DNA of 64,000 nucleotides from Nemertoderma westbladi (taxonomy: Eukaryota; Animalia; Xenacoelomorpha): assembly GCA_032718475.1 (NCBI GenBank), contig JAUCBJ010007004.1, forward strand, positions 1 through 64,000. Direction: 5' to 3'. The position numbers and the translations under genes were made by a program. The stretch's first letter is position 1; each line of letters begins with the position of its first letter. The notes beneath the pieces are model-generated. The model was not told the DNA's origin. It searched no databases and saw only the letters and a program-made list of their open reading frames with translations. Positions 11,858-37,337 of the stretch are shown here, piece by piece.

Positions 11858-12254
11858 AGCCTGGATAGAGTTTAGAAGGTGACTTGTCAATCACTTCCTA
11901 CTGCTATTGGATGGCGGCCATAGGCTGCGTGCTGGGGGCCGGTGTAAGGGAAGGGATGTATTGGATAACAATGGACACTGGATAGTGCATTGGATGGAGT
12001 GTATTGGGCGTATTAGGCAATACTTGACACGCCCGCCACGACTAAGAATGTCTGGGTTGGGGCAATAAATCGTAATGTGAGATATGGGATAATATTCTGA
12101 GAAGAATATTTTGATGACTATTTTCGGGATGAATATTACGACTGAATAAGGGAAGGGGGAATAATTATATTATAATTATTTCGTTTTTAAAATCAGAGTC
12201 CTGAGGAAGTGTATTTTGTATGTTTGCCTACGGAGGCGCGAAAAATCGATTACA

Positions 12255-12370
12255 CCACTGTAACCTGCTCCTTTCCCTAAATTGAGAATTTAACATTGAG
12301 GCGGGATATTAATTCGCCAAGGCGGGTTTTGCGTCGAGTTCCCCCCCCCCCCCCCCCCCCCCCCTGTCTC
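12255..12370. repeat. Dispersed repeat with a poly-C tract; inverted copy at about 52850-52970
   Basis: ctaaattgagaatttaacattgaggcgggatattaattcgccaaggcgggtttt is present as a reverse complement near 52870-52935. Confidence 0.75.
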
Positions 12371-14674: not shown

Positions 14675-15869
14675 TGTTCGCGCTTTTGAAGACCTTTAGC
14701 AGTTTAACCTGCCAAAATTTATATGTCTTTTAGTTAATTGAAACACCTTTAGCATACGACAATATTTTATGCTAATACACAAAACATTACCCGAAGTCAG
14801 CCCATGCGCGATCATTCACCCGATGGATCTACACCCGGGAGGCTGAATTCGGCTGCTTAAATTTTATTATTGCAGTGTAAGGTTGCAGTGTAAACCTACT
14901 GTATTATTCGATAGATCGTTAATAATTAATTTCTGACAGATATTATTGGCTTTCGGGAAATATTAACAGTTCCTTTAGGACGTGGCGCTCTATCTATTTA
15001 AACAGAACTAGGACTTATACTAAACGCAACGATACTGCTTATGATTAAAGTATAAAGCGCATTCTTTAGGAAATACTTTGTTACCAATCACAATCATGCA
15101 CACTATTCTGCCGACCGTCAGTATATTTGATCACATATAAAGAGAGCAGCAATTGACTCATGTAGGGTCTGCTAAATAACATTAGATTCAATACACACCA
15201 CATTAATATAAATCGCAATTGTTATATATAGCCTGTCTCTCTAACCTGTAGTGTATCAAGAAAATTGGGAAATTTGGGTGATTTATCCGTATTATCCAAA
15301 GAGCAATATTTCCATCAACAAATAGATACAATTAATAACTGACGGTAAATAACAGTACAAACAATATGATTAATAGTGAGTTAAGATTGATTAGTTAGGT
15401 GATTTAAGTTAGGTAACAGTTTATACTTTCGATAATTTAAGCAGTTTTACTAGAGTTCTTCCCAAAAAGCCGGTGTTATGGCGAAAATGGGAACACAACA
15501 ACAGAATCATATAAAATCACATGACTAGAATGACTATACGAGTATACCAACTACCCTTATTCCCCGAAGCTCCCGTCCAACACAGAGGATGAGCAGTGAG
15601 ATAGGAAATTCAGTTCAGTAGCTCTGGGATAGGTCGAAATCAACGCCCACTCAAATTCTATTGGCCGATACGGACAGCAAGGCTAAGGCAACCTCTCTAA
15701 GCTAGTTGGCCGATTAAACTGAGCCCAGATATCTCCGTACAGCACATCAGCCAATAAGCTGGTAGCTTGCACTATTTTAGTTATAAATCCCTTTGAGAGT
15801 ATTCTAGCGACTGGGGGGGAACTGGCCAGCAAAGGCAAACGTATCAGTTATCCCACAAAAGCTTTTACA
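14675..15869 (-). repeat. 3' LTR of the BEL/Pao element
   Basis: Matches 36143-37337; I saw three transitions between the copies. Confidence 0.96.
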
Positions 15870-15947
15870 CCGCTCCCAGAAAATGGGATTTAAGTCTATA
15901 AAATATACAAAATCACAGTTTCTAAAATATAAAAATACTCTAAACAG

Positions 15948-18900
15948 TTAGTCTTTCTTGCGCGGACGGCGTTTACGCAGTTTTTTAAAGCTAGCAAGAG
16001 TCCTTTTCTCTTTGGGGCGAGCCACTTTACGAGGAGGGCTATAACTCCTGGGTGAAGGGTGCAATATGATTGCATCAGAAGGTATGGGATTACGATCGGT
16101 ATATCCGCCGGTCGAAGTACCGGGTTGATTGACATCAACGTCCGGGGAGAGGGGTCTAACGGCTTTGAGAGCTCGTTTCAAGACAGCCGCTCTTACGGGT
16201 TCTTTACGAGTGGTCTGAACGAGGGCCGTGGGTGGACCATAGGCAGTTAGAAACTTCCTTGGTTTAATGGTTCTTTCCAACTCGCGTTCGCGGGCTCTGT
16301 ACTCGTAAGGCCGTCGATATACTTCTTGTAACTCGGGGTGTGAGTTGACAAATAAGTCTCCATAGGCCGGATCTTGACGGATAAAGTTTATTAAGTTGTA
16401 CGAATTGATGTCACTCGGATTAATGCTCCTGAGAAATTTGCGTACATATTTGGTTGAAATACATTCTCCAACACGCTTCAATAGTTCATAACTTGATAGG
16501 CGCGATTTCTGCTCGACGGAGGCAAACAAATAAGGATGGAACGCATAAACTCCTTCGTAAGCGCGTCCAGGATAATAGCGATGGCGTGAATCACAATGTA
16601 AATCAGCGTTCGCTTCCCAAGCTCTGATATAACGTAGTACAATCATTTCATCTACGCTCTCTAAATCATGGTTAAAGGGACAATCAAAGCTGGCGTGTCC
16701 TTTTAATTGACAATGATGGCATTGAGTCATAAATTGGGGGCAGACAGCAAAAATGTGCAAATTATTAAGCCGACAATATGCACAATAGATTTCCATCGAC
16801 GGTTGCTCGTGGAAGTAGGAACAAAGATCGTTGGTGTCCATAGACGTAATATGGTCTCTCGATGCGCACAGCCGACAACGTTGTCTAGAAACATAATTGG
16901 CATGGCGATAATCATACGCAGTAAGACACTGGGGACCTTGATACCATTCCAATATGTAGTCGCTATCGCTACTCCGAGACGTGGGGGGCTGAATCTCTTC
17001 AGATTCTAAACATATGGGTTCGTCTTCCCCTTGTATAGTTGAGGTAGGCGTGGCTGTCTCCTCAAGTGGACCTACCGTCTGAATTTCCACGACAGAATAA
17101 CCTGTGGGGATCCGAGGTCTTTGGATAACCGAGGAATGCAGGTTCATTATACAAATGTCTTTGAAAATAGCAAATCCAGCGCTATCTAACTTCTCCGCAG
17201 CCGAGTCTCTTAAGCTGAGCTTGGTCAAAGCGCGGTCTTTGAATTGGCTATCCATGTTGCGAAACGGGGTTAAAAACCGGCGGAAACATTCAAAGCGGAT
17301 GAATTTATTATGTTCATCTAGCTTAGCGAGTTTGGTCCCAAGGATTAATGGATGGGCGCGTATAGTACGACTGCACACATCGGCTAGCCAACCGGAAAGT
17401 GCGGTGTTTTCGAAGATCGTGTAGATAGCTAAGGAGGGGCGGAATGGAACACTCATGAAGCTATACACGGCGCCAGGTGCGGTCAACGGTCCGTCAAAGT
17501 ATAATCGAGAATAATGGTCTCCGTATACTTGTTGATAGTTGATGGGATTTCCGACCTTGAAATTCCACCCGTATTCCTGAAAGGCAAGATGTCCGATGGA
17601 AGTTCGTTGCACCTTTGTAATGTTGCTAGACGCATTAGCATACATGGTGCGAAAGAAACCTCGGCCTTCGGCCCAAGGAGCTATCAGCTGAGTATCCACG
17701 AAAGGATAGGGGATATTCTCCATATTCCGAAAGTCGTTTTGGAGATCTCCGTAAACAGTTGAGCCGATTTTAATGATTCTTTCGTTGAATAACATCTCGA
17801 GAACGGGCTGGGGTAACATTGATCCATCGATACCCATGGCCGGTTTGCGTTCGGTGTCAATGACGTAACGCTGCGCGAGTTCGAATTGTCCATGTCGGAG
17901 ATTCCTTTGCGTTTCGGTGAGAGTCTCAAAGGAATAATCGATCACGTCGGAACACGCTCGCGTAAACACGTGAGTGGAGCCAGCTAATCTGCGTATGTGT
18001 ATCATGCGCGTAGTTCCTAATTCTCCGATTGGAACGCTACCTTCGTTATCGTAAGTAACAACGCCATACATCTCAATGATATTAAGAGTTTCATTCCACT
18101 CTTTGGTGGCGTTCTCGAGGGTCATCCCTACCGGATGCCACAAGGTGGCGCATTGATTAGCGTCAGGGAGATCACTATACTTCATATATCGAGTGGTATA
18201 CGTCTCCACATTTCCATATCTTTGGATTTTCTCCTCCTCGAATAATACATCTAGATTCCAATGGACTAATCGAGTTTTAATAAATCCATCGAGATTATAA
18301 GGAGGTTCTGTATCCTTCTCTATTCGAGAAACGTTATATGGTTTTCGAAATGAGTTTACCTTTACTAATTGATCCAGATGTTTTTGCAATTGTTCGAGTT
18401 CGACAATGTCCAGAGGATTTATTAGTGGTAGAAACTTTAAATTATGCGTCGGATCTTCTGGTTTTACCATATAATATTGAGTCAGATTAACGTAATAAGG
18501 GTGATCTTTAATTCCATAAAAAGAGTTCTGTAAAGGTCTAGCGCGTATGTTGACATCGTGTACCATACGACGGACAAGATCCGCTCGATTGTCCGGAGGT
18601 TCAACGAGTATACCGTCAACTCGAGCGGCCTCGATTGGCGGACGCTGTAACATAGGAGCGTCAGCGATAAGATTTTGCGATCTTATGCTGATATCAAGCG
18701 GTTGGGGTTGTATCTTTGCGAAAAGTTTGTCTCTGAAATGCGGAACCATCGAGGGATGACGGACGGTTTTAGAGTAGAGATCGGTTATGAGTATCTGAGC
18801 TTCGGGTTGGGCTAAAGCGGCTTCTTCTCTCTCATCCATTTCCGTATGTTTCTCCTCTAGTTGATTTTCCTCCGCTTGTTTCTGTAAGCGTTCTTCTAGA

Positions 18901-20201
18901 AACTCCTGTAGAGAATACGTACGTCCAAGCTCGATGTCCTCTTCGAGGTTTTGGATTTCTCTATCAAACTGCGGCAAGGCTAGCTCTTTCACCGATTGGA
19001 CCTGCTGCTGTAATTTACGTTTCTCTAGAAAATCCTGGGTTCCCTTTCCGATTTTCTGTCGGATGGCGTCTAGAGCGTTTCTGATGACACTCTCCTCGAC
19101 TTCCGTGGCAGGTTGTATCGGAGTTAATCCTGGCCGATTGTAAGGATTAAATGGGGATGTTAGATGCCCGCGTCCCAATCCGGTTAGATAGGATGGTCGA
19201 ATATCTAACGAACCTACCGCTGGAACACCACCGATTAACTGCTCGGGTAACACCAAATCTTTGAACAGTGAATATAACTCGGGAGAATCAGTGATACTGT
19301 TAGGATCAAGAGTTTGAGGTCTCACGGGGAAATGGGGAGGCCTGACCGAGTATTCCGGAACTCTGATCATGGGTTTATTTAGCGATCGTTTTAGACGGGC
19401 GATCGTAGGTGATACGTCGAACAGGTTTCGCTCGAAACTCCCGTAAGTATAACGCGTAAAACTGTGTTTAGCACAACGTCTCCGCGGATGTTTATGTCTT
19501 TCCGTTTGCTGGTTAGGTCTAGGACATGAGTCACAATAATACCAAAGACGTACGTCCTGCAGAGGAAACGCGGGTGATCGTTCTCCAGTTTTGCAATACT
19601 CTTCCATTTGTTCAAAGCTGTCCGGGACAACAGGCAGTGGACGATCTGCGGTAAGATACATCATGGTGAAATAGAGTCGTTTGAGTTCTACCATGGGATC
19701 GTGATGTATACCTTGAGGATATCGAGTCTCTAGGTTCTGTTGACTGGCAATATTGAGATAGGTTTCTCGCAAAAATTCCAAGTAGTCGTTGAAGTTGATA
19801 CGCTTATCGGGTTCTTCAACGTTTTCTCTGTCGAGTAGGTTGCGAATAGAGTTCTCGTGTTCTATTCTCGGTTTATCATTACGATTCCGCTGGGCATGAT
19901 ATTTAAATAAAACCATTTCCCTTTCGGTGTCTACATCATCAGTATCATGTAAATCGGTAGGATGGCCGGTAGTTAAGAAGTCCATATACGTACCATTACG
20001 ATTCGTATAGCGAGCGGTGAATTTTCTATAGTCCAATTCACGCGTAAGTTGTTCTTGGGACATCGGCGGTTCGATATAACGACCATCGTCCTCCGTAATA
20101 GTCGGATCGGCTTCACCGCGTATCAAGCTATCCACAAACGCTTGTAAAGGTAGAGTATATCGCTCCCTGATACCAAGGTCATCTTCTATCAATTCCGTCA
20201 T
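15948..20201 (-). CDS. Accessory ORF3 of the BEL/Pao element (1417 aa): coiled coil, DEDDy/RNase D-like 3'-5' exonuclease, three CCHC knuckles, basic C-terminus
   Basis: The ORF is intact and lies between pol and the 3' LTR. Exonuclease motifs are VVTYDNEG (ExoI), LFNERIIKIG...YGDLQNDF (ExoII), FVDTQLIA, SIGHLAF..YG..FK and YTIFE (ExoIII-like). Knuckles are CRLC-x4-H, CAYC-x5-H-x4-C and CHHC-x4-H-x4-C. It ends KKLRKRRPRKKD. No signal peptide or TM segment seen, so it is not env-like. Confidence 0.8.
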   Translation of the reverse strand: MTELIEDDLGIRERYTLPLQAFVDSLIRGEADPTITEDDGRYIEPPMSQEQLTRELDYRKFTARYTNRNGTYMDFLTTGHPTDLHDTDDVDTEREMVLFKYHAQRNRNDKPRIEHENSIRNLLDRENVEEPDKRINFNDYLEFLRETYLNIASQQNLETRYPQGIHHDPMVELKRLYFTMMYLTADRPLPVVPDSFEQMEEYCKTGERSPAFPLQDVRLWYYCDSCPRPNQQTERHKHPRRRCAKHSFTRYTYGSFERNLFDVSPTIARLKRSLNKPMIRVPEYSVRPPHFPVRPQTLDPNSITDSPELYSLFKDLVLPEQLIGGVPAVGSLDIRPSYLTGLGRGHLTSPFNPYNRPGLTPIQPATEVEESVIRNALDAIRQKIGKGTQDFLEKRKLQQQVQSVKELALPQFDREIQNLEEDIELGRTYSLQEFLEERLQKQAEENQLEEKHTEMDEREEAALAQPEAQILITDLYSKTVRHPSMVPHFRDKLFAKIQPQPLDISIRSQNLIADAPMLQRPPIEAARVDGILVEPPDNRADLVRRMVHDVNIRARPLQNSFYGIKDHPYYVNLTQYYMVKPEDPTHNLKFLPLINPLDIVELEQLQKHLDQLVKVNSFRKPYNVSRIEKDTEPPYNLDGFIKTRLVHWNLDVLFEEEKIQRYGNVETYTTRYMKYSDLPDANQCATLWHPVGMTLENATKEWNETLNIIEMYGVVTYDNEGSVPIGELGTTRMIHIRRLAGSTHVFTRACSDVIDYSFETLTETQRNLRHGQFELAQRYVIDTERKPAMGIDGSMLPQPVLEMLFNERIIKIGSTVYGDLQNDFRNMENIPYPFVDTQLIAPWAEGRGFFRTMYANASSNITKVQRTSIGHLAFQEYGWNFKVGNPINYQQVYGDHYSRLYFDGPLTAPGAVYSFMSVPFRPSLAIYTIFENTALSGWLADVCSRTIRAHPLILGTKLAKLDEHNKFIRFECFRRFLTPFRNMDSQFKDRALTKLSLRDSAAEKLDSAGFAIFKDICIMNLHSSVIQRPRIPTGYSVVEIQTVGPLEETATPTSTIQGEDEPICLESEEIQPPTSRSSDSDYILEWYQGPQCLTAYDYRHANYVSRQRCRLCASRDHITSMDTNDLCSYFHEQPSMEIYCAYCRLNNLHIFAVCPQFMTQCHHCQLKGHASFDCPFNHDLESVDEMIVLRYIRAWEANADLHCDSRHRYYPGRAYEGVYAFHPYLFASVEQKSRLSSYELLKRVGECISTKYVRKFLRSINPSDINSYNLINFIRQDPAYGDLFVNSHPELQEVYRRPYEYRARERELERTIKPRKFLTAYGPPTALVQTTRKEPVRAAVLKRALKAVRPLSPDVDVNQPGTSTGGYTDRNPIPSDAIILHPSPRSYSPPRKVARPKEKRTLASFKKLRKRRPRKKD

Positions 20202-20244
20202 ATCTGCTATCTGAGTTTATTAATATCAATATGAGTTAATTTTT

Positions 20245-20398
20245 TAGGCAAGCGGGCGTCGCTGCCTACTAGGCTTTTGCCCCCGGACAGTGGGTTTCTC
20301 AGCGCCGATGTACCGCTGTCGCAGTGTTTACGCCAACATGTAGCAACAGCACGACAACGATAACCGGCACAAGTCCCACCACTGTCCGTCCCAAAGGC
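20245..20398 (-). other. Structured RNA element: a ~125-nt extended hairpin plus a 24-nt hairpin upstream of ORF3
   Basis: On -, the pairings are CGGACAGUGG/CCACUGUCCG, GUGCCGG/UCGGCGC and UAUCGUUGUCGU/GCGACAGCGGUA, with many G-U pairs. A second stem UAGGCAGCG/CGCUUGCCUA follows. Confidence 0.7.
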
Positions 20399-23300
20399 TT
20401 GAATCCACTTGAGGTTATCTCGGTAGAGTTAGGGCTATTTTACAATTGCGATTAGCTACTGTAAACACACTTTAGTAGTAACATTCACCTATAAACGCAC
20501 AAATTCCATACAATCATTACTTACTGCACACATGCATGCCATTTGTCCGTTAGTCAGTGTCTTCCAGAATGTCACGTTATTACTATGTATCCTTGGATAC
20601 TAATAGTGCTCTATGTATACTCTTATGCTACGCAATGGGGCAAGCTTTTATTGTTCTTTTAACTTGCTTCTAATTCTAGCGTGGGTGTTGCCATGGTGAC
20701 ATTATGGAAAACTAGCGGTAGAATTAGGGTAATTCTCATGCATACAGATCTGGGATGTTATTTAATAGTAATTCTTTAGTTGTCAATATCCTCTTTATGC
20801 ATGATTTTATAAATTTTATCGGCTATTGACTATATGTTGGAGATTCTCGCACTCTAATACACTCAATATGAATCTCCGCTCCCATGATCTATTAATTACT
20901 GGAATTTTGGGAATGTTATAAATTGCACAAAATGACAATTTATGAAATCCATTTGAATATGAATTTAAATTTATTCCCGTGAATTTTATTATTTGATGTT
21001 AAATTGATACAAATTTTATTCCAGAGCATATCTGGGGACTTAGGATCCTTAATTCTATAAAATAGTCCTTCTAAGAATATGGGTAAATACTGCGATATCT
21101 TAATTGACTAGAAATTTTAAAGGATCTGGATTTTACAGATTTTAATAAATATTAAATTAATATTTAGGATGGGCACCGATTTATTCCAGAACTTGTCTGG
21201 GGACGTTAACCACTGATTCTAGAATTTGTCTTTCAAGTATATCGGTGGGTGCCACGATATCTTAATCGACTAGAATTACAGATGGTCAAAAAATTTAACA
21301 GATTTGTTTGCGATTTACGCTACTGTTAGAGGGACATCACGCTACTATATGTATTATTTGTTATAAGGTAGAAGAGCAATATCGCACGAAGCAATGTCAG
21401 TGCGAAGAGGCAAGTCGTTTCCAAGGTCTACCCAGAGCTTGGTTTAGCCGAGACACGAGGATCTGAACTTTGCATTCCTAATACTCTGCCTACCAATAAT
21501 ACTTAAATATAGTAGTGGCTTTATTGTACTTTAAAAAGTACGGACATTTCATCTTACTGTAGTCACGTATTTATAATATGATACGGACAGTAAGGGAAGA
21601 GAAAAATAATTATTTCTCGCCGTCGCACTAAATATATATTATAGTAATTATGTACGTAATAAACACTAATATATTGCACTAATCTACTAAATAATCCCTA
21701 AAATAACATTTTACTAAATAAAATTAAATAAAAACGATTATAATAACGTACATAATAACATTTACATATAAAATGTAATAAAAACAGATAAAATAATATA
21801 GACATACACCCACTCCAGACGTACTACGTTGAAGAGTCCCTAGATGTTTGAGGTATTAGGGAGGTGGTCGTGGGAAGGGTTTCTTGCCTTCCATAGTTTC
21901 CGGAGAGTTCCCTGTCTCTTTCCAGCAAACATAAACGACCAACTGGGCGATTGAGTTGTTGCGTCTCAAAGATTATCCCGGGTTTCTTGAAGTTACGCCG
22001 CATTACGACGAGTTCTACTGAGCGCACTAGACCATCCTCCGAGATGTGCGTCTCGATGATACGACCGATCTGCCACCGTCTACGTGGAAGGTCCGGATCT
22101 ACAATAAGGACCATGTCTCCGGCGCTGACATTTTCCTGCTGCGCAAACCACTTAGTTCGAAGTTGTAGTGTGGGCAGATAATGTTTCTCAAAATGGTCAG
22201 CGAAACGACGGGATAGCAACTGCATAAGCTGCCAAGTTCGACGACAGTATTCATCTCCATCGGCAATCTCGGATTGTGGGAGCATGGCTACAGGTTTCTT
22301 AAGTAGGAAGTGCGCGGGTGTTAGCGCTTCCAGGGAGTCGAGACTCGATGAGACTGGCATAAGCGGTCTCTCGTTAAGATAGGCAGCGATTTCTTCCATT
22401 AACGTCCGTAGAAGTTCGTCGGTGAGATATGCGCGGCACGGCACTATAAAGTGAAATGCGGTCTTGACACTTCGAATTAATCTCTCCCAACTTCCTCCCC
22501 ACCAAGGGGCGTCGGCGGCGTTAAAGGTCCAGCTAGACGCCGTTATCCGTAGCTGGTCGTCCACCTGTCTTTGATTCCAGTCCTTTACGTAAGCCTGAAT
22601 TTCGTTGTTGGCACCAATGAAGTTCGTTCCCTTATCGGATCTCATCGTATTGCTAGTGCCGAAACGAGCGATCTGTCGTCGTAAACATAAGACGAAGCTG
22701 TTAGTAGATAGATCGTTCACCATATCGAGATGGATAGCTCTACAAGTCATGCAGACAAAGATTACACACCATCTCTTGATTATAGTTCTAGCACGATACA
22801 CTTCAATAGGGCCAAATAAATCCACACCAGTATTAGTAAAGGGTGGTTCATAAAAGCTTACTCGTTCCCTAGGTAATTCTGCCTCTCGCTGTGTTAAAGG
22901 CCTACTGAATACTTTCCTACAAGGTATGCAGTTCCTAAGAACTTGATTCAGAGCTCTACGCGGTTTATGAAAATAATAGCGGGTTCGAATTTCGCTAAGA
23001 ACTCGTTCTCTACCAGCATGATACAGTTTACTGTGAACATCTACAATCATCTTGATTTGTACTTCAAGATTACTAATGAGTATAGGGAATTTAGTATCAA
23101 AGGATAATGGGGCGTTTGTAAGCCTTCCTCCAACACGTATTAACCCATCTATCATTGTGCTAGAGAAGCGATCCCTTAAGCGCATCTGCGGATTTCTTAA
23201 TAGCAGAAAATACCTATCGGAATCCTCATAGCATTGTAGGAGTCTCAGTAGCTGCTTATTAGTTTCTTCATGCTCCTGGTAGCTGATCTTCTCCTTTAGA

Positions 23301-26300: not shown

Positions 26301-27957
26301 TGTTTGGCGAAAGTAGTTTGGGGAAACTCATCGTTGATGTCCTTTTCGTGAGTAAGTGCTCGATACACCGCGGTGTTTATTAGATAACAGGATTCATTGG
26401 CGTCGGAGAATTCGTCAGTATAGAATCCTTCCATCTCAGACTCTTGATCGGTGTCATTTACGTCACTAAATTGGACATGTAGTTCGGGCTCACTTACCTG
26501 ACTCTGTTTGTCTCGTTCAAACTCACTGTGTAACAAGATGTGATGTTTCGCGCCACACTTTTCACACTTTAGGTCGGAGTAACAGGTTTGCCGTTGGTGT
26601 CCTGGTCTGAGGCAATTATAGCATAACCGCTTGTCCCACACAACGGTACGTCTGTCGATAAGTGATTTCTTTAGAAATTCCGCACACGCACTCAAACGGT
26701 GGGTCCCGTCGCACAGCGCACAGTTAGGTTTTATGTTACTTATTTTACCTTGGGTAGTCTGATGCACTCTCGTTCTTTCTTCGGGCTTTCTTCCGCGCAT
26801 TCTACTAGGAGACTGAGGAGGGGTCTTAGCAATCTGTTCTCTCCTATTGTTGGTTCGAGCCTTGTATTTACTTACGTCCTTTGAGGTTTTGTCAACATAA
26901 TAAGATCGGTCTGTATCTTTCCCGCTGTCCTCTTCTTGGGAAGCTTGGCTTTCGCCGTCGTCAGTGTAACACACCGGTGTTACCCTTCTCCTAGAAGTGG
27001 GTTTCTCACTTACCTTATTTTCCGATGTTTTCTCTCTGGACTGCTTGATGAGTTGTAGTTTGACTTCGCCATCTAAGAAAGACATGAGATCAGCCATGGT
27101 AGGACTTCGTCGTTGTTGTTCATTCATGTACAACACTTTCTTGTCCCAGCGTGTACATACTCCACCCTTTGGTAAAGTAGAGACTACGGCTCCAATAACC
27201 ATGGAACTCTGATATTCGTGCGACTTACCTAACCAGTCCAGTTGTCTACAGATCTCTTGAATTTCATCGGAAAACTCTATAATCCCACTACTAAGGAAGT
27301 GTCGGGGGGCTACTAATTTGGCGTACAAATACTTAGCTATGTTATCCTTGTTACCATACCTGATGTTTAATGTATCCCAAACTTGTCTTAATCCTTCTGG
27401 ATGTCCAATAAACTTTAACGCCATTAACTTGGGAGGTCCTTCCAAGCACTTGATGAGGAATCTAAGTTTCTCTCCGTTAGATAGTACAGAGTTCTGTATG
27501 CTATCTTTGTAATATTCGTTGAAAGGTAACCATTTCATCTCATCTCCATTGAATTTGACGATCTCTCCCACTTTGACAGCTTGGCGGGCTTCTGTTCTAG
27601 CCATCTGACGCGTAAAGCTTTCTTGGGCCATCGTGTTATTTAATATCGAATTATCGGTATATAAATTTCTCGGATCTGTTGAAGATATATAAACAGTTAT
27701 AGATAATCCAGTAACTCAATAATATAGTATAATAGCTGACAGTCAAGTTACAGAACTGCACACAGACCTAACACAACTGACAACTGCACAACCTCCTACC
27801 TACCGTACCTGTCCAACCGGTAGGCCTACACCTGATACAGCAACACTAGTACTGTACTGTAGTTTTTCCTTTCTTGTACTACCGTACTATCCCAGTGGCA
27901 TGGCCTACTATATGTCTCACACAATTTCCCAACACCTCCCACAGTTTTATAAACTTT

Positions 27958-28285
27958 TTAGTTTTCAAATCCATATCGCTTTGGGGGCCTAGACATTCGG
28001 CCTGAACGCGTAACGACCGTGGGTGGAGCAACCCCTATTGGTATCTCATCTTCATCATCTGTAGGGTCTATTTCATCGTATGATGTTTCATCATCTGTAC
28101 TATCAACCTCCGTTTCCGATTCGATATCAATTACCCTTTCAATTTCATTATTCGTATTTAATGCTGACTCAACCTGATTTTCTGCATGCGAAACTTTCAT
28201 CGACTTTCTAACATCTTGAAGGTGTCGGCGTATTCCTTTCACTATCACTGAACGTTCCTGTACTTGATCGACTCTATGAGGTCCC
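27958..28285 (-). pseudogene. Out-of-frame integrase C-terminal remnant (GPY/F-like) of the nested element
   Basis: Reads GPHRVDQVQERSVIVKGIRRHL...TRSGRMSRPPKRY, a typical integrase tail. Confidence 0.75.
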
Positions 28286-30484
28286 TTTTTCTACAAAAAC
28301 AGGATTAGGGTCTATGCTATTGCATTGATCACATTCTGTGCATATTTCATTCACTAACTTCTTTGGCACAGTTCTAGAATTTAATTCTCTATCAACGTTA
28401 CATAACTGCATGGTTCTGTCTACACCTTGGTGCGCTAATTTGTGTAAATATGTAACACGCTGACGATTGTTTACATTCAATTCCTGTATATCTCCCATTG
28501 CAGCGAATGCATCATTATTGGTTTCTTTTACATCCTTATCACGGCCAAATTTCAACCAATGTGATGGAATTCTAGTTAACGTGTCCGATAAATTTTTCGC
28601 TGATTCAACCCGATGCGGTCGGATTTTTAATTTATATTCTACTATGATCTCGCTCAGTATATCCAATCGACGCTCAATGAGCTTTCTCGCCTGACCTTTA
28701 GTTCGAATTCTGTGTGTGTCGAAAATAACAGCATTCACCCAGCTATACACGGTTGATGAATCAATAAAGAGATTAACTACTTTTATGTTCCAATCCACTG
28801 CCATGTTAATTCCCTCAATAACCGCATCTAGTTCTGATACATTTATGTGTTGGTTGTCACTTTCTTTGCGAAGCCATGATCTGTCTTCAACTACAACTCC
28901 GTCTATCTTTATCAATGCTCCCTTTGCAATTGAGCTGGCGTCAGTCCATATATCTGCGTGATCTGTAGTACGAACAACCCACTCTCCTTTTACAGGATCA
29001 TTGTGACATACATTATCGATCGTTTCATTAACCAATTGTTGTAAACCATCGCCTATATAACTGTCCCATGTTACGCCCGCACTACAGTGTTGTAACCATG
29101 CACATGCTGGTCTTAACCATCCTCCCACAGGATAGTGTCCCCGAAGCTGTCCACATATCGAATGTAACTCTCTCCTAGTGGTTTTTTCTGGAACTTCTGG
29201 TAACTTTTGACTCCGTCTCCAATACAATTTATTGTTTTGTTCATTTCCACAAATTTCTAGACCGAGAACCTTACATCCATTTATTACTGGTTCAGCGTCT
29301 TTTGAAATTAACCCATAATCTTTCAGGTGACCCCTTACAGCCTCTGTAGGTATTTTATTCGTGTTTACATATACATCGTCTCTGAAGTTATCTGTGGAAC
29401 TTTGAACCTTTTCATCTTTCTTTAAAACTCCTTCAACAATACGGTCCATAATCTTTGGACCAGGACCCAACCCAAATCCCATCCTAGTAACGACATATCG
29501 CTTTCCTTCATATACAACAGTTTGGTATGATCGTAGTTCTTCTTTAATATGAATTTGCATATATGCCCAACGAAGATCGATTACAGCGGTTTGTTCTCCC
29601 ATCCTCCGCCAGACTCTTAATTTTTCATTGCAGGCAGCAGCTTCACGACCAGGTGCATTGACGACATGAGAATTCAGTTCTCTATAATCTAAGATCGGCC
29701 TTATTCGTTGTTTTTTCTCCTCATATTTTGCCATGATTGGGATGGTTCCCTTGACTTCTCCATGAATTTCCGGAGAGTATGGAACTATCCATTCTCGCTC
29801 GATCCACTCTTCCATAGCAGCTTTATATAATTCGGTGTGCTCTGGTCGTATGCGATACTCAGTCATTCGATTATTAAGCTGAGGTGGCGTTCCGTCTTTC
29901 CACTTCCACTCTGCAGTCCAATTTTTTCCATCATATACTACGCGAAAGTCTGAATCTTCTATAATAATATCGGACTGATTGGGTGCTATTTTCTTAGTTA
30001 GTGATACTTCGATATTGACTTGTTCCTTCTCTTCAATATCTAGCTGTTTAACCTCAGCCCCTACACAACCAAATATGATTGGAGACAACGTTTCAGATCC
30101 AATATGTCGGACCACATCGATTCCTAACATTACTGCCCCTTCACCCAACAATTTTTCTACCACCAATACTGGCCATGTAAAAAGGAATTCAATTGAATTA
30201 ATGGCAACGAATGTTAATTCAACCTCTCCTATCACTCCACAATGCGATTCACCGTCTAACATCGTAATTTCAGATGATCTAATACATTTTTTCACTTCTA
30301 TTCCATTTTGTTGACACCATAGTTTTGACACTAAACATCTCGAGCAGCCAGTGTCAACCAATGCGGGAATGACTATATTCATTCCTTCAAGTTGAATGCC
30401 AACTAATGGGAGATTCCCATTGTGGGGGAAACATCCATTGGCTGCGATGAATCCCCCATTCCGTTTCCCGAAGGTTGCCGCCAC
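28274..30484 (-). CDS. pol: Pol of the nested element (PR-RT-RNaseH-IN zinc finger), -1 frame relative to gag, truncated
   Basis: LVDTGC, RPILDYRELN, IDLRWAYMQI, FRDD, WTDAS, H-x3-H...C-x2-C, then a stop. Confidence 0.9.
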   Translation of the reverse strand: MAATFGKRNGGFIAANGCFPHNGNLPLVGIQLEGMNIVIPALVDTGCSRCLVSKLWCQQNGIEVKKCIRSSEITMLDGESHCGVIGEVELTFVAINSIEFLFTWPVLVVEKLLGEGAVMLGIDVVRHIGSETLSPIIFGCVGAEVKQLDIEEKEQVNIEVSLTKKIAPNQSDIIIEDSDFRVVYDGKNWTAEWKWKDGTPPQLNNRMTEYRIRPEHTELYKAAMEEWIEREWIVPYSPEIHGEVKGTIPIMAKYEEKKQRIRPILDYRELNSHVVNAPGREAAACNEKLRVWRRMGEQTAVIDLRWAYMQIHIKEELRSYQTVVYEGKRYVVTRMGFGLGPGPKIMDRIVEGVLKKDEKVQSSTDNFRDDVYVNTNKIPTEAVRGHLKDYGLISKDAEPVINGCKVLGLEICGNEQNNKLYWRRSQKLPEVPEKTTRRELHSICGQLRGHYPVGGWLRPACAWLQHCSAGVTWDSYIGDGLQQLVNETIDNVCHNDPVKGEWVVRTTDHADIWTDASSIAKGALIKIDGVVVEDRSWLRKESDNQHINVSELDAVIEGINMAVDWNIKVVNLFIDSSTVYSWVNAVIFDTHRIRTKGQARKLIERRLDILSEIIVEYKLKIRPHRVESAKNLSDTLTRIPSHWLKFGRDKDVKETNNDAFAAMGDIQELNVNNRQRVTYLHKLAHQGVDRTMQLCNVDRELNSRTVPKKLVNEICTECDQCNSIDPNPVFVEKGTS
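30397..30469 (-). promoter_or_regulatory. -1 ribosomal frameshift signal: G GGA AAC plus pseudoknot
   Basis: The slippery heptamer (30469-30463) is in the correct gag frame, within the gag/pol overlap. Stems UGGGGGA/UCCCCCA, AAUGGGA/UCCCAUU and GCCAAU/GUUGGC follow it. Confidence 0.8.
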
Positions 30485-31359
30485 GATGATGCCGCCAAAG
30501 CATTATTGCTACCGGAGACCGCATTCATATACCCTTGTCTCGTACTGTTACGGCATCCTCTCGCAATATGACCCTCCATTCCACAGTTGTGACACCTGAT
30601 GACATTTCCACTATTTCTAGCTTGAAAACCATCATAACGATCATTACCGGTGCCACCTCTATCAGCTACTGAACAATTCCGAGCCAAGTGGCCCCACGTT
30701 CCACAACGGTAACACTGAACATTACTACCAACACCACCGCTATTTACAATGGGACGAAATCCCCTTCCCCTGTGTGGCCCACCACGAAAACCAGCAGCTC
30801 CAATCCCAAAACCGGCAGCTCCAATCCCAATCCCATCTCTTCCACTTCCGGCTCTCTCTGACAGTATACGCCGAGCTTGTTGCAATAAATCCGTCCAATT
30901 TCTCCTGCTCGCCATTGCTTTAACTTCTGACCTAACGCTCTCAGGTAAACCATTCGCAAACTGAGCCGTTAACATATCCTGTGCACATTGACTATCTATA
31001 TCCTTTGTAATTAGTGATAGCAACCTCCGCAAATCTGCTAGAAACGCATCAGCAGACTCATCACTCTTTAATATCCGACTTTTAAACTTATCGTACGCTA
31101 GATACGGATTGTCAGCAAACGCCTCGATCAATCGGTCACGAACTTCATCGTAGTTATTCTTTTGCTCGTCGTCCAGCTGATTTATAACATCATGAGCTGC
31201 TCCCGTCAGCGATAGACGAAAATATGTAACTCGACTCTCTTCCGTTAGTTTAGATTCCGTTTTGAGAATATTGAAAGTATCGTCAAACGTTGCAATCCAC
31301 GAGCAGGGATCACCAGTTCCATCATACTTAACGACGTAATCCGATAATTTTGGCGCCAT
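30403..31359 (-). CDS. gag: Gag of the nested LTR element, with two CCHC knuckles
   Basis: YDGTGDPCSWI capsid-like start; CYRCGTWGHLARNC and CHNCGMEGHIARGC. Confidence 0.92.
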   Translation of the reverse strand: MAPKLSDYVVKYDGTGDPCSWIATFDDTFNILKTESKLTEESRVTYFRLSLTGAAHDVINQLDDEQKNNYDEVRDRLIEAFADNPYLAYDKFKSRILKSDESADAFLADLRRLLSLITKDIDSQCAQDMLTAQFANGLPESVRSEVKAMASRRNWTDLLQQARRILSERAGSGRDGIGIGAAGFGIGAAGFRGGPHRGRGFRPIVNSGGVGSNVQCYRCGTWGHLARNCSVADRGGTGNDRYDGFQARNSGNVIRCHNCGMEGHIARGCRNSTRQGYMNAVSGSNNALAASSWRQPSGNGMGDSSQPMDVSPTMGISH

Positions 31360-31390
31360 AACGATTTAGGTTAAACAATAGATCAGTATA

Positions 31391-31402
31391 GCCCGGTTAG
31401 CT
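31391..31402 (-). promoter_or_regulatory. Primer-binding site complementary to a tRNA 5' end (Lys/Ile-like)
   Basis: The + strand reads GCCCGGTTAGCT directly against the 5' LTR. Animal tRNA-Lys begins GCCCGG(C/A)TAGCT and tRNA-Ile(AAT) often begins GGCCGGTTAGCT. Confidence 0.65.
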
Positions 31403-34400
31403 TGTTGAAGATATATAAACAGTTATAGATAATCCAGTAACTCAATAATATAGTATAATAGCTGACAGTCAAGTTACAGAACTGCACACAGACCTAACAC
31501 AACTGACAACTGCACAACCTCCTACCTACCGTACCTGTCCAACCGGTAGGCCTACACCTGATACAGCAACACTAGTACTGTACTGTAGTTTTTCCTTTCT
31601 TGTACTACCGTACTATCCCAGTGGCATGGCCTACTATATGTCTCACACAATTTCCCAACAGGATCATTATCAGGTCTATAGGGAATATCATTAATAACAG
31701 GTCTATAATCACCCTTAATAGGGTTTGCTATAGGAGTTTCAACTTCACTAGCAGTATAGATGCGTGTAGGCTCCACACCTTGCGCATGTAATACTTCAGA
31801 CCTAACAGGTTGACACAATGTTACAGGGGGTATTGGTATGCCCCTTTGTATATTGACTAATTTGTCGCGTTCTAGCGCGATACTTTGCTGCACTTCTTGC
31901 AACTCTGCTCTACTTTCCCTCACTGTTCCCTTAAGTTGGTGGACAGTCTCCTGCATCTGTCCCAGCAGGAGATTCATCCCACGCCGTCCCTCTTCCACCC
32001 ACTCAACCGCCGAAGCGGGAGTCGCCAACATAGTAGCGGGCTGACGCGGGACGACGGGAGACAAATTTTTAATTTCTCTCTCTGCTATCTGGACAGGGAT
32101 ATTCTCTTGGACTGTTCCACCGGGTACAGGCAGTGTAGTACTATGTAAAGGGAATTTAGAGTTAAGCTCTGGAAGTACAGGGGTCTCTAACACAGAAGTG
32201 ACTTTGGGAACGACAGGCCTAATTATCTCAGGCTCATCAACTATTGTAGAGAGTCTTTGGACCTTAATACTTTGGGCTGTAGGTTCTATACTACTCAAGT
32301 CTGTGCTAGCTAGCTGTCTTCTAACAGCTGGGGGCAAATCAGGCAATTTGCGACGGTAAGATGTTTTTCTACGCCTACTTAGATGAGATCTATTTCCTCC
32401 GCCTTCAGGATCGGTAGTATCGCCTTCCTCCGAGGATGTGTATCCCTGGCGCTTGGGAGTAGATTTTCTCATCATCTGCATCTGATTAGCAGTAAACTGT
32501 TTATTTATACTGTCTTGCGTCTCGTGCAGATTTTCCAACTCTAATTGGATAGTCTCCTCAGACGCTCTCCGTTCTGCTTCTGCCACTGTTGCCTTTCTTT
32601 CGGCTTCCGCCGCTTTTCTTTCTGCTTCTGCTTCTGCCGCCTTTGCCTTTCTTTCGGCTTCTGCTTCTTTTCTTTCTGCTTCTGCTTCCGCCGCCGCTGC
32701 TGCTGCTACCTTTCTTCTCTCTATCAGTTCTTTCTTTACTTGTTCTTCTCGGACTCTAGTGAGGCGGAGTTTTTCATCACATTCAGCTTGGTTTGCAGCT
32801 AACATTTCGGCATCGATTGAGTCCAACACAAGCTTGGTTCCTTCACTATTAGGGGAAAGTCCAGACAGCCTTCTCCTCAACTCTTCGTCTCCTAGGAATC
32901 GCTGATAGTCGGACAAGTAAATGTCGATAGCGTCTCTAGTTCGCGGTTTCTCGGCGGTCTCTTCGCTTTCCGCTTGAGAAAGGGTGACATCAGTTTGTTC
33001 TTCACAGGTTGATCTCTCCGCTAGCTGGGATTTCCACTGGGCCGTTTCCTGTACTTTGAGATCTACCCGATGTAACCAAGTTTTGACAGCAACCTGCAGC
33101 GACGTGTCCTGTCTTCTTTTGGAAGTTTCCTCAAAGGCTGAGAGGATTAGTCGTATGCGTAGGGTTCTTTCGCGTATTTGATATAGCAGCTCTTCCTGCT
33201 CTTGAGGTCCTTGAGGTTGTCGAAACAGTTGTTCTTCCAATCGATCCAAGGAGCCGAAGAATCCCTGCACATATCCTGCTGCCGACCTCTTCCAAACAGC
33301 TGGATCCATTGTATCTTTAGCCACTCCCATCCTGTGTATATCTTCCCAAGTAGCCTCGGACAGATCCAACGGGAGTCCGAGTCCGGGAAAGTTCCATTGT
33401 GATTCAACAATAGATATCAATTCTTCCCTGGCGTATCCCGCGTAATTATCTTGGGTCGCTCGCTTATTCCTCGCCCAGTCGGCTTGATGTTCTTCCACCG
33501 CAATGAATATAGTAGTTAGCACTGCAGCAGGAAGGGTAAGAAGGGGGTCCGAGTAGACTGTATCGGCCATCTGCACTCCGTGTTCGGGGGTCAGCTCTAC
33601 AGTATCCGAACTGCTGGAGCTATCGGGTCGCTGGGATGTATGTTCTTGACCAAGATGTTGCTGCGATGAGACGACTGCCTCTTGGTTCCGTTTGACCTGT
33701 GCCCGAGTGCCTATGATGGACCTATGGTGGATTAGCCTAGGGTCTGATACTACTGGAGGGATGACCTTTTTTGCAGTAGGAGGTGAGCTGAACTCCTTTC
33801 TTACTCGCTCCACACTCCTATCTGAGTCACAGATAGTTGTATCGATCAGACTGTCTGACAGGTTTTGCTGAGTGTCAGACATGTTTGGCTATACAGTTGA
33901 ATGTCTACTACTATAGTTTCAGTTAAAGCAAGTCTGGTAATTCAGTATGACCGCAAGCCTAGCGATTTATTACCGATACCGTTACTCAGTGTAACGTGAT
34001 ATATATACAATATATTAGAATACCGGTATGCTTATAATATATATATAAGTATTATTACAGACTAGATTTGTCACAGAGTACCGGTATATAATTTTAGCAC
34101 AAATATATATAAATATATAATAGGCCTATCGTGAATACCGGTATGCAGCTTACACTTATAGTATATAAGTATAATTCTGGACTAGAATTAATTACAGAGT
34201 ACCGGTATGATTTCAGCTCAAATTTATAGAAATAAATATAATAAGCCTATTGCCAGTACCGGTATGTCAATTATTTTTAGAATAATTGAATTTCTGAATA
34301 TTTTAAAGGTTACTTGGATACTTTAACTTACTTTATTACGGTTATTTAAGCAGTAGTCCAACTGATATTGAGACCTAGTTGTTGTCTGGCAGGCCTACTA

Positions 34401-35259
34401 TTTATAAATCGTTTGAGTTGATTTATAATAGATATATACCCGTTTAAAAAGGGTTTTTTGTCAATATTTGAAATAAATGTTATTATTTCTGGGGGAATCA
34501 CTACACAGAAGCTGTGCGCTCTCAGTGAAGTGTTACTTATTGAGACACTAAAACTGATAATTCTAATTTACCTAAGTTACTTAATACTACAAATTACTTA
34601 CGATATGGGTGAGATTAATTCTCTAATTAAAACACAACAAAATATTACGTACGAAATTTTTAGGGTAATTTTACAGGAAGTCTACAAACCAGCCTAACAA
34701 AGGGTTAGAATTCTGGTTATTACAACGGACAGGGTACTACGGTATTTGAAATAATAAGTAGTAGTAAATATATTGCACTGTCCAGATAGGAAAATACCAC
34801 CGCCTGACGACCTATAACCGTATCGCTATAGGTACTACGTTATGTATCACGGAGTGTTCCTACCTAGAAGTTAATAGAGCTAGCGAATGTGCCTATCAAC
34901 CACTTTACAACACAAATATACTGCCCACACTAATTATTCCGGAAAGCACTGTACACTAAACCCTAAATTAGGTACAAGTACCGGTATAACAAATAATCAG
35001 TAGTTAAATATACTTGAACAGTTAAAAGAACCACGGCATCTGCTGGAGTGACTGAAGCACAAAATCTCCAGTCTTTACCTACGCCGAGCAGCCCTGATGT
35101 AGTACCGGGGTTAGTTTAACTATAACGGTATGTATAACAAGCACAATTACTGTAGGAATAAACTTGGGGACATGAATGTTGCGAATAATCGCATAAACTC
35201 TGAATAATAAATATTACGCTACCCGTACAGAATACTCAAACAAAAATACAAACCAAACG

Positions 35260-35720
35260 CTGGCAGACTACTATCAAGCCTAAACAAACTACAGTATGTG
35301 CAGATTCTGAAACTGTTAGTTAGTATGCGTTCTAACACGGTAGTACGACTTATTCTTTAAGAGGGGATTGACCTTACAGCATATGGCTGCCCCAACTTAC
35401 TAACGGCACTTTATCAGACTACTCTACACACGCAGCAATCCCTTCAGACCTAAAAATAGCTAGACAACAATCCAGCCTACAAAATATTTGAGTAATAACT
35501 ATTACGGTACCTGAACAGACCACACAAACAAACACAGGCTAAAACACTGGCAGACTACGATCAAGCCTAAATAAACTACAGTATATGCAGACTCTGAAAC
35601 TGTTAGTTAGTATGCGTTCTAACACGGTAGTACGACTTATTCTTTAAGAGGGGATTGACCTTACAGCATATGGCTGCCCCAACTTACTAACGGCACTTTA
35701 TCAGACAAACTCTACACACG
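35260..35720. repeat. ~288-bp-period direct duplication in the BEL 5' leader
   Basis: ctggcagactac.atcaagcctaaa...cggcactttatcagac occurs at about 35260 and 35547. Confidence 0.9.
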
Positions 35721-35948
35721 CCGTAATCTCTCCAAACTCAACAACAGTCAGACAGTAGCTCAGCCTACAATTATCTGAACAATCTGAGCAGGGTCACACG
35801 CCTTCTGCTCAATATTAGCCTACTAGGAAATAAAACCGACAGAAATAGATAAAATCTCAATAAAAATTCAGGGCTGCAGTCCCTGATTAAGTACTAAGAC
35901 CTACCGGTATACACCAATCAAATTCGAATAATACTAATGTACTGATAC

Positions 35949-36077
35949 AGCAGTACCGGTTAGGACAGTTGGGCCTACAGACCTACAGAAGTACCGGTTC
36001 TGGCAGTTGGACCTACGGACCTACAGCAGTACCGGTTCTGGCAGTTGGGCCTACTGACCTACGGAAGTACCGGTTCA
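35949..36077. repeat. ~36-bp tandem repeats next to the BEL 5' LTR
   Basis: agtaccggttctggcagttgg.cctac.gacctac occurs 3-4 times. Confidence 0.85.
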
Positions 36078-36142
36078 GGTTACCGGTCACTACGGTATTT
36101 TGCAACCTTATTGCCTACTGCAATAAGATATTAAACTGTTAC

Positions 36143-37337
36143 TGTTCGCGCTTTTGAAGACCTTTAGCAGTTTAACCTGCCAAAATTTATATGTCTTTTA
36201 GTTAATTGAAACACCTTTAGCATACGACAATATTTTATGCTAATACACAAAACATTACCCGAAGTCAGCCCATGCGCGATCATTCACCCGATGGATCTAC
36301 ACCCGGGAGGCTGAATTCGGCTGCTTAAATTTTATTATTGCAGTGTAAGGTTGCAGTGTAAACCTACTGTATTATTCGATAGATCGTTAATAATTAATTT
36401 CTGACAGATATTATTGGCTTTCGGGAAATATTAACAGTTCCTTTAGGACGTGGCGCTCTATCTATTTAAACAGAACTAGGACTTATACTAAACGCAACGA
36501 TACTGCTTATGATTAAAGTATAAAACGCATTCTTTAGGAAATGCTTTGTTACCAATCACAATCATGCACACTATTCTGCCGACCGTCAGTATATTTGATC
36601 ACATATAAAGAGAGCAGCAATTGACTCATGTAGGGTCTGCTAAATAACATTAGATTCAATACACACCACATTAATATAAATCGCAATTGTTATATATAGC
36701 CTGTCTCTCTAACCTGTAGTGTATCAAGAAAATTGGGAAATTTGGGTGATTTATCCGTATTATCCAAAGAGCAATATTTCCATCAACAAATAGATACAAT
36801 TAATAACTGACGGTAAATAACAGTACAAACAATATGATTAATAGTGAGTTAAGATTGATTAGTTAGGTGATTTAAGTTAGGTAACAGTTTATACTTTCGA
36901 TAATTTAAGCAGTTTTACTAGAGTTCTTCCCAAAAAGCCGGTGTTATGGCGAAAATGGGAACACAACAACAGAATCATATAAAATCACATGACTAGAATG
37001 ACTATACGAGTATACCAACTACCCTTATTCCCCGAAGCTCCCGTCCAACATAGAGGATGAGCAGTGAGATAGGAAATTCAGTTCAGTAGCTCTGGGATAG
37101 GTCGAAATCAACGCCCACTCAAATTCTATTGGCCGATACGGACAGCAAGGCTAAGGCAACCTCTCTAAGCTAGTTGGCCGATTAAACTGAGCCCAGATAT
37201 CTCCGTACAGCACATCAGCCAATAAGCTGGTAGCTTGCACTATTTTAGTTATAAATCCCTTTGAGAGTATTCTAGCGACTGGGGGGGAACTGGCCAGCAA
37301 AGGCAAACGTATCAGTTATCCCACAAAAGCTTTTACA
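36143..37337 (-). repeat. 5' LTR of the BEL/Pao element
   Basis: 1195 bp, matches 14675-15869. Confidence 0.96.

Follow-up and report, generated by a model that had tools for sequence, protein, structure and literature searches.

Elements of the BEL/Pao group of LTR retrotransposons (Belpaoviridae) have LTRs of 0.2-1.2 kb with TG...CA ends and a short target duplication, share a gag-PR-RT-RH-IN gene order, a triple Cys-His box, an LLDSG/LIG protease and a DAS RNase H, are primed from an 18-nt primer binding site (PBS) for tRNA-Arg or tRNA-Gly, and carry a polypurine tract (PPT) of about 10 nt ahead of the 3' LTR. Their curated length is 4.2-10 kb (ICTV), a descriptive and not a defining range, and published automated calls, which are uncurated, include some of 16-23 kb, the longest at 22,762 bp. 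Giant Gypsy elements include Burro of planarians at >30 kb and Ogre of plants at 16-25 kb, and fish foamy-like ERVs extend to 17 kb (PMC6431247). The element described here, at 18,674 bp, exceeds the curated BEL/Pao range about twofold, and as in Burro, Ogre and the foamy-like ERVs its size comes with a long polyprotein, an accessory ORF and repeats, and with high copy number. In contrast to Burro and Ogre, which are Gypsy elements, it belongs to BEL/Pao ('Pao' has 0 occurrences in the main text of the giant-element review PMC6431247), and its internal region of 16.3 kb is below the 20-kb cut-off for a 'giant' used there. It also differs from described BEL/Pao elements in that apparently no tRNA PBS adjoins the 5' LTR and in that the third ORF is a predicted exonuclease and not env.

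The window, a stretch of 64,000 nt of Nemertoderma westbladi DNA, holds the element on its minus strand, to which all features below belong unless stated. Its boundaries can be read directly from the target site duplication (TSD) GGCAA (14670..14674 and 37338..37342, no strand), between which lie 22,663 bp, or 18,674 bp after subtraction of 3,989 bp for a nested 4 kb Gypsy-like element including one TSD, so the native size of ~18.7 kb proposed in an earlier note is borne out. The LTRs (5', 36143..37337; 3', 14675..15869, with AATAAA at LTR position 1002) are 1,195 bp each, have TG...CA ends and differ by three mismatches, all of them transitions, in keeping with the recent movement that had been claimed. 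The remaining layout agrees with the earlier description of 1.2-kb LTRs, a 2.3-kb repeat-rich leader, a 1.6-kb spacer and ORF3: the 5' leader (33883..36142) measures 2,260 bp with repeats of 38, 121 and 287/288 bp, the non-coding, AT-rich spacer that separates pol from ORF3 (20202..21823) 1,607 bp, and ORF3 1,417 aa. Adjoining the 3' LTR is a short purine-rich tract, GGGAGCGG (15870..15877), likely the PPT, which is 8 nt long with one pyrimidine among them; GGGG(A/C)-type tracts occupy this position in related elements. The length is the sum of a 2.3-kb leader, ~550 extra pre-RT codons, a 1.6-kb spacer and a 4.3-kb ORF3, plus long LTRs. Rfam gave 0 matches over 14600-37400 at E up to 1, and a viral-contig scan found no relatives among viral contigs.

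The nested element (27677..31660) encodes a gag with CCHC and PR-RT-RH, has identical LTRs of 258 bp and the TSD GGATC, and near 28280-28287 is ~570 bp shorter than one contig of run X1. A joint without it, 27671->31661, is present in all four public runs whose contigs were compared with the window, and it may have moved with the outer unit or come later.

With the nested element removed the polyprotein frame is, by arithmetic, 2,689 codons. A premature stop (24266..24268) falls inside PF05380 and so the window copy encodes no intact protein of that length; the ~2689-aa polyprotein of the earlier note therefore holds as a frame and fails as an intact product of this copy, which is broken twice, by the nested element and by the stop. 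The N-terminal extension (31661..33882), ~740 codons with an E/A/K/R-rich stretch, has no Pfam match. It is followed by a gag core (DUF1759), the triple Cys-His box, a protease with LLDSGS...LIG and an RT with YMDD (24269..27676), and then by RNase H (DAS), an HHCC zinc finger, a D(61)D(49)E integrase and DUF5641 (21824..24265), giving the order PR-RT-RH-IN with PF05380, DUF1759 and DUF5641 all present. The Cys-His box reads CX2CX3HX4C, CX2CX4HX4C and CX2CX3HX4H, the arrangement being that defined for BEL/Pao in PMC554778, and the integrase spacing is within the widened DD(45-53)E of the group. All 60 hits of an RT search carry PF05380 (best E 5e-91), and in a quick-mode IQ-TREE tree of 59 of the 60, which had no outgroup from other superfamilies, the element sits on a long branch (1.5) within a 45-row clade (SH-aLRT 99), with RT identity to unnamed relatives of up to 44%. 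Domains, Cys-His box, integrase spacing and RT clade agree, and the earlier assignment to BEL/Pao is supported. The element may be Sinbad/Sailor-like; for Sinbad PMC554778 gives D(62)D(49)E, and the agreement with the Sinbad/Sailor lineage is that of the D(49)E spacing alone. The relatives are smaller, at 6.6-9.4 kb between repeats, and have 963-1,475 codons before YxDD in the 55 that could be parsed as against 1,729 here, and ORF3 was found in none of 80 relative loci.

Such relatives could suggest that 18.7 kb is a one-off chimera, ORF3 and spacer having been inserted once into a normal BEL/Pao element, or an assembly artefact, as might the absence, among the contigs of the four runs, of any spanning a second full-length copy. 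The depth of these contigs argues against it. Summed contig depth is not copy number. On this measure every X1 bin that lies entirely within the element but clear of its nested part reaches at least 156,000, while the flank stands at 25.6; bins of ORF3 range over 178k-761k and those of pol over 218k-1,115k. Across the four runs leader, pol, spacer and ORF3 are covered at a comparable order of depth, and in all runs compared ORF3, spacer and leader are thousands of times deeper than the flank. Single X3 contigs, 13-15% diverged from the window copy, have depths of 5,718 over ORF3 and 5,742 over pol with 33-36 on the flank. The earlier note had held that its view would fall if other copies with the same LTR were short and lacked ORF3 and spacer; the family does not bear this out, as these parts are covered across it and a junction from LTR to ORF3 exists, but internally deleted derivatives occur, with pol skips of 1,708-1,710 and 1,775 bp in 4/4 runs and skips inside ORF3 of 2,809 bp (X4) and 2,353 bp (X1). 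That the family is of very high copy number and that ORF3 and spacer are not a one-off is supported by these observations.

The insertion site also speaks against an artefact. The element splits an intronless host gene for a xanthine dehydrogenase/aldehyde oxidase-like protein, whose 5' part (37338..39876; Fe-S, FAD and MoCo 1) and 3' part (13417..14674; MoCo 2) lie either side of it. Both host junctions of the filled site are found in X3 contigs, and in X1 a contig of 4,251 nt reads through the empty site, where the TSD occurs once, so the insertion is polymorphic, filled in the X3 and empty in the X1 sample. The chimera or artefact reading is by now largely refuted and we give it very little credence.

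ORF3 (15948..20201, ATG at 20201) occupies the position of env. It has no transmembrane segment (highest 19-residue hydropathy 1.24), for which reason it is rejected as an env glycoprotein, and it has no fusion-protein family either; its C-terminal tail is basic. By sequence it holds three CCHC-type zinc knuckles (16680..16877), a 3-sequence profile of which matches retroviral nucleocapsid (E 6e-4), and a predicted DEDDy-type 3'-5' exonuclease domain (17382..18113) with predicted catalytic residues D723, E725, D824, Y932 and E936 (numbering from 20216). In an Atlas search 27 of 30 matches were to PF01612 (score 0.94). HMMER over 1.84 billion proteins returned two hits, P0113 and P0114, of about 25-30% identity to ORF3 and with its exonuclease-plus-knuckle layout; in the alignment of all three the ExoI pair D723/E725 (DxE) and ExoII D824 are invariant and ExoIII Y932 is aligned. 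A by-eye reading that ExoIII is lost in ORF3 was overturned by alignment of the domain alone. The motif is Y932-xxx-E936 and not YxxxD, the last position being E in P0113 and D in P0114, and with E for D the domain is classed as one that would work like DEDDy and not as a strict member. The best Atlas cluster of an ORF3 homologue combines PF01612 with zf-CCHC and is Euglenozoan, its layout matching that of ORF3. Direct matches were found neither in Pfam (whole protein), nor in PDB (single sequence), nor in two word-index protein searches, and a PDB profile search gave as best rows Egalitarian and EXD2 at E 0.07 and 0.55, neither significant. The EXD/WRN/RNase D-type exonucleases to which these belong have the ExoI-II-III pattern in common with ORF3, the similarity being remote and ExoIII having E for D here. 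Residues 1-690 have no assigned domain. Two AlphaFold models made for ORF3 have pLDDT of only 34 and 33, too low for use.

Juno and Vesta are Gypsy-like elements, and thus of a retrotransposon superfamily other than BEL/Pao. DEDDy ORF3s are known from these LTR elements of bdelloid rotifers and from the Terminons (PMC5408684), and by description they resemble ORF3 here in being DEDDy-like exonuclease ORFs in the env position without a transmembrane segment. The acidic motif is altered in both, to DEED in the rotifer ORF3s and to D-E-D-E here, and ORF3 here differs in its 1,417 aa, its three CCHC knuckles and its ~700 N-terminal residues without assigned domain. Among openly accessible papers, a literature search turned up no BEL/Pao element described with an exonuclease ORF.

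How ORF3 is expressed is suggested by a joint in run X4 from LTR position 624 to 20418 with an exact GT...AG (depths 1,108 and 493). The donor, CAG/GT, is at LTR position 624/625 (36713..36714), and the putative acceptor AG (20419..20420) is preceded by CTAAC, exon 2 starting at 20418. ORF3 is likely made from such a spliced, env-type LTR-to-ORF3 subgenomic RNA, the joint being displayed in X4 only and the kind of library of X4 being a guess. The 2,809-bp X4 joint inside ORF3 was also considered as an intron and ruled out, having no GT donor. As a separate observation, most of the single-copy host gene is without cover in X4, which would fit an RNA library and is not used as evidence here.

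Taken jointly, the anatomy of a recently inserted copy of a high-copy BEL/Pao family and the exonuclease and splicing reading of ORF3 seem to us probable. The family would replicate through the usual LTR cycle with an ~18-kb RNA as its starting point, and broken copies, such as the window copy and the deleted derivatives, likely moved in trans. What ORF3 does is a more tentative matter. The account we favour, at rather less than even confidence, is that it is an accessory RNA 3'-end nuclease: the spliced RNA would give ORF3 protein, the knuckles would bind RNA, and the exonuclease would trim or degrade the small RNAs of host silencing, or the targets of those small RNAs, and in this way would help the family reach its high copy number. 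Alternatively ORF3 could be an RNA-binding adaptor akin to Egalitarian or EXD1, with weak catalytic activity, for export, transport or packaging of the 18-kb RNA, as the Egalitarian row, the E of ExoIII, and the nucleocapsid-like knuckles with the basic tail would allow, and PMC5408684 discusses DEDD derivatives that are inactive yet still bind RNA. However, ORF3 and both homologues retain the tyrosine and all four acidic residues, a pattern more in line with an active than with a dead site, and we regard the adaptor as unlikely.

Yet less probable in our judgement is that ORF3 is captured cargo of no benefit and the size of the element tolerated bloat. The ORF3-deleted joints, and a small and biased list of variant sites in which one of five in ORF3 is synonymous as against 19 of 27 in gag-pol, would be in line with cargo, and Rodriguez et al. 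saw no clear link of ORF3 to copy number, and described its evolution within the genome as near-neutral. Such cargo would not be expected to keep a frame open over 1,417 codons, to retain the residues at catalytic positions relative to homologues so distant, to possess a dedicated GT-AG junction, or to persist at matching ORF3 and pol depth in the diverged subfamily seen in X3.

Apart from silencing, priming offers a role for the nuclease, since at the PBS position no TGG is present until leader position 227 and the 11 nt that start at the first base after the 5' LTR (36132..36142) are exactly complementary, 11/11, to LTR positions 447-457 (36881..36891). The complement, seen in the element's own letters, hints at self-priming of the kind by which, according to PMC4600332, Tf1 and Tj1 prime from the 5' end of their mRNA. 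There too the PBS position is complementary to the element's own LTR, but in those elements, of unrelated lineage, the matching stretch is where the mRNA begins, whereas here it is LTR 447-457. ORF3 would then be a cofactor, its exonuclease trimming the unpaired 3' tail of the paired RNA to leave a primer 3'-OH at the LTR edge. Among shuffled LTRs 2 of 5,000 had a complement as good, and among internal positions 10 of 20,243 did; the spliced exon implies that transcription begins before LTR position 624. Against this, an energy-based duplex control was weaker (3/200 shuffles), the test was chosen after the sequence was seen, and the 11-mer overlaps TATAAA at 445-450 and so may lie upstream of the start. 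Thirteen relative loci served as controls, nine with LTR ends clean enough for TGG and seven for energy; an adjacent TGG is absent in eight of the nine, none of the seven, all distant relatives, has a significant duplex and none of the 80 has ORF3, so priming in the lineage needs neither. The nested element has no self-complement of note (4 nt). A self-priming cofactor is to us about as doubtful as the adaptor, and the fuller claim of a first self-priming BEL/Pao, an 18-kb element that has dropped tRNA priming and whose exonuclease, made from spliced RNA, trims its own RNA into an 11-nt primer, is a shade more doubtful still; no report of BEL/Pao self-priming was found among the openly accessible papers searched.

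The curated size range of BEL/Pao is extended about twofold by this element, which shows that such length need not keep a family from becoming abundant or from landing in host genes; the polymorphic insertion here is a natural knockout of the xanthine dehydrogenase-like gene. Standard LTR searches use length limits of 11-15 kb, so an element of 18.7 kb would be missed or distrusted. A DEDDy-like accessory ORF, as reported for rotifer retroelements, is now met in another superfamily, in the env slot and with probable env-like splicing. The role of exonuclease ORF3s has been unsettled since 2017, and because the present family is abundant and recently mobile that role becomes testable.

The outer boundaries of the giant minus-strand retrotransposon come from a self-comparison of the window, in which a 1,195-bp direct repeat (14675-15869 and 36143-37337) has TG...CA termini, carries 3 mismatches, much as the earlier note had estimated for the LTRs, and is abutted on both outer sides by GGCAA, the target-site duplication (TSD). 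A second LTR pair of 258 bp, identical and with the TSD GGATC, encloses 27677-31660. Because of the positions of these two pairs and their TSDs the element spans 22,663 bp, or 18,674 bp less the nested element and one TSD, and its long frames lie on the minus strand only. By arithmetic the leader (33883-36142) is of 2,260 bp, the spacer between pol and ORF3 of 1,607 bp and ORF3 itself (15948-20201) of 1,417 aa, so that the sizes first given for span, LTRs, leader, spacer and ORF3 were all correct. The polyprotein then put at about 2689 aa holds as a frame length of 2,689 codons, but in the window copy this frame is broken twice, the nested insertion being one break and a premature stop within PF05380 (24266-24268) the other.

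Judged from its predicted frames, the element is BEL/Pao by every protein hallmark. The polyprotein frame holds DUF1759, PF05380, an integrase zinc finger and DUF5641 along with a triple Cys-His box and the motifs LLDSGS...LIG, YMDD and DAS, and its integrase spacing is D(61)D(49)E, to be set beside D(62)D(49)E in Sinbad and second spacings of 53 in BEL and 45 in Pao (PMC554778, in excerpt). PF05380 is present in all 60 long RT homologues (2,014-2,527 aa) from a search restricted to proteins of 2,012-5,000 aa, and a quick tree built from 59 of these places the element as a long branch within a 45-row clade (SH-aLRT 99), outside which lie four rows carrying a baculovirus-F domain. Named clade references are absent from that tree, so that 'Sinbad/Sailor-like' can serve as no more than a lead. 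Ahead of YxDD the element's frame counts 1,729 codons, versus 963-1,475 in 55 parsed relatives, and the N-terminal 740 codons (31661-33882) gave no Pfam family match. Direct repeats more than 3 kb apart were found in 38 of 80 metagenome loci of relatives, with spans of 6.6-9.4 kb, and none of the 80, whose short contigs create a bias to short elements, matched ORF3 or the N-terminal extension.

ORF3 lacks a transmembrane segment and matched nothing directly in Pfam or PDB, and for its first 690 residues (18150-20201) neither a Pfam family nor any of the 80 loci gave a match. For residues 690-900, 27 of 30 matches in the Atlas protein-cluster resource fell in PF01612 clusters, with a very high score (175 of 256 features), PF01612 being carried by only 11-31% of members in the top three. 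In a full HMMER scan, 1.84 billion proteins yielded two matches, the unnamed proteins P0113 (E 8e-7) and P0114 (E 2e-4), both with an exonuclease-like domain and, after it, CCHC knuckles; they sit on contigs of about 9.4-11.5 kb. In a domain alignment of the three sequences D723, E725, D824 and Y932 are kept throughout, and the ExoIII acidic position is E936 in ORF3; P0113 likewise has E there, P0114 has D. Profiles built from the three sequences rank Egalitarian and EXD2 top in PDB, not significantly, and match retroviral nucleocapsid knuckles at E 6e-4. The best Atlas cluster for P0114 combines PF01612 and zf-CCHC, again at a very high score. The exonuclease is therefore a well-supported prediction rather than a demonstrated activity. 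Variant sites give no support for selection on ORF3: among 56 listed coding sites, a small, top-ranked subset, synonymous changes make up 19/27 in gag-pol, 13/24 in the N-terminal extension and 1/5 in ORF3.

As to ORF3 expression, contigs of one public sequencing run (X4) connect LTR sequence with the spacer at depths of 1,108 and 493 among the joints listed. On the window the join runs exactly from CAG|GT (LTR position 624/625) to the AG after CTAAC (20419/20418), omitting 16,295 nt, or 12,306 without the nested element. Splicing of an env-type subgenomic RNA is established for gypsy and retroviruses, and the X4 pattern would be of that type, the kind of run being a guess. The joined sequence may be RNA or a DNA copy of spliced RNA; under either reading the join ties ORF3 and LTR into one unit.

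The element has inserted into a xanthine dehydrogenase/aldehyde oxidase-like frame that has no introns and runs to about 1,260 codons (13417-14674 and 37338-39876, minus strand). It divides the MoCoBD_1 profile of that frame, with positions 13-199 to one side of it and 198-244 to the other; the halves join in one reading frame if the TSD is counted once. Contigs matching 39499-39638 belong to a diverged paralogue. A 4,251-nt contig of run X1 aligns by letters 1-2160 to 39497-37338 and by letters 2156-3230 to 14674-13600, and so shows the site unoccupied, the five TSD bases being present a single time. One X2 contig, from the same sample, breaks off from the window at 37338 and does not run into the LTR, and both filled junctions occur in contigs of X3, perhaps the run from which the window derives. 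The insertion is therefore polymorphic between two samples carrying the same organism label, which supports the recent movement proposed in the earlier note.

To see whether the length is a family trait, contigs from all four runs were also mapped onto the element. For X1 the summed contig depth, which is no copy number, comes to 178k-761k for ORF3, more than 1.1 million for the spacer, 218k-1,115k for pol and 360k-1,435k for the leader, compared with 25.6 for the host flank and 139 for the nested interior. Individual contigs tell more: single X3 variants of ORF3 (15% diverged) and pol (13% diverged) reach 5,718 and 5,742 against a flank of 33-36, which would put a single variant some 160-fold over flank. 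All four runs have a joint from which the nested 3,989 bp, no more and no less, are missing. On the other side of the balance, no contig among those compared spans a whole copy. Joints deleting pol sequence (1,708-1,710 bp and 1,775 bp) each occur in all four runs and joints deleting ORF3 sequence (2,809 bp and 2,353 bp) in one run each, and so shorter derivatives exist alongside the long form. The recurrent deletions, at 21959-23672 (about 1.71 kb) and 23859-25635 (about 1.78 kb), take in integrase and RT/RH regions, are in 4/4 runs with X3 contig depths of 2,500-5,000, and are likely non-autonomous derivatives amplified in trans. Overall the element is real, young and abundant, about twice curated BEL/Pao size and with an exonuclease-like accessory ORF in the env position.

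The ICTV profile gives BEL/Pao lengths of 4.2-10 kb, as do De la Chaux and Wagner, who take 15 kb as the upper bound where full-length elements are already known. Among the calls that they made automatically (median 7.4 kb), every clade has a maximum of 16-23 kb. These maxima are single de novo calls that may include insertions, but with them in print length by itself is not without precedent. Excerpts of Arkhipova and Yushenova (PMC6431247) treat Burro, Ogre, foamy-like ERVs and Terminons with Pao unmentioned, and those of Rodriguez et al. (PMC5408684) describe ORF3s of predicted DEDDy type in Terminons and in LTR elements of rotifers. Neither a BEL/Pao exonuclease ORF nor BEL/Pao self-priming is described in the portions available of PMC6238403, PMC3601003, PMC6338049, PMC13524379 and PMC3985635; Repbase, closed journals or supplements might hold one.

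The window has other features. The nested element (27677-31660, minus strand) is small and Gypsy-like, with DUF7047, RNase H and no TGG primer-binding site; its X1 depth is about 5x flank, and near 28280-28287, the expected integrase-core location, it is about 570 bp shorter than an X1 contig. At 1136-5799 (plus strand) two long intron-free frames encode WD40 repeats and, after these, Roc-COR with a pair of CARD matches; the layout is of the ROCO type, as in innate immunity or apoptosis. An element at 47247-49974 has inverted ends of 885 bp that are 95% alike and contains RT fragments on either strand, in a fold-back or DIRS/Penelope-like arrangement. A non-LTR element is present twice (6296-7329 and 41484-43759), with RT, DUF6451 and a (TAC)n tail, the second copy also having an endonuclease fragment, and minisatellite arrays occupy 50683-52356 (periods 15/22), 55268-55952 (36), 60212-61449 (16) and 63286-64000 (57).

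Past the 5' LTR no TGG occurs before leader position 227. LTR positions 447-457 are the exact reverse complement of the first 11 bases there, directly at the LTR edge, a match that arose in 2 of 5,000 dinucleotide-shuffled LTRs and at 10 of 20,243 internal positions; in an energy test 3 of 200 shuffles did as well. The pairing has the geometry of Tf1/Tj1 self-priming (PMC4600332, in part), and self-priming is kept as a rival reading of low probability. However, the 11-mer overlaps TATAAA and may lie upstream of the transcript start, and among relatives, where a TGG adjoining the 5' LTR is absent in 8 of 9, a significant duplex was found in 0 of 7. The related 7-kb BEL/Pao loci without that TGG are L017, L019, L024, L034, L040, L045, L053 and L071.
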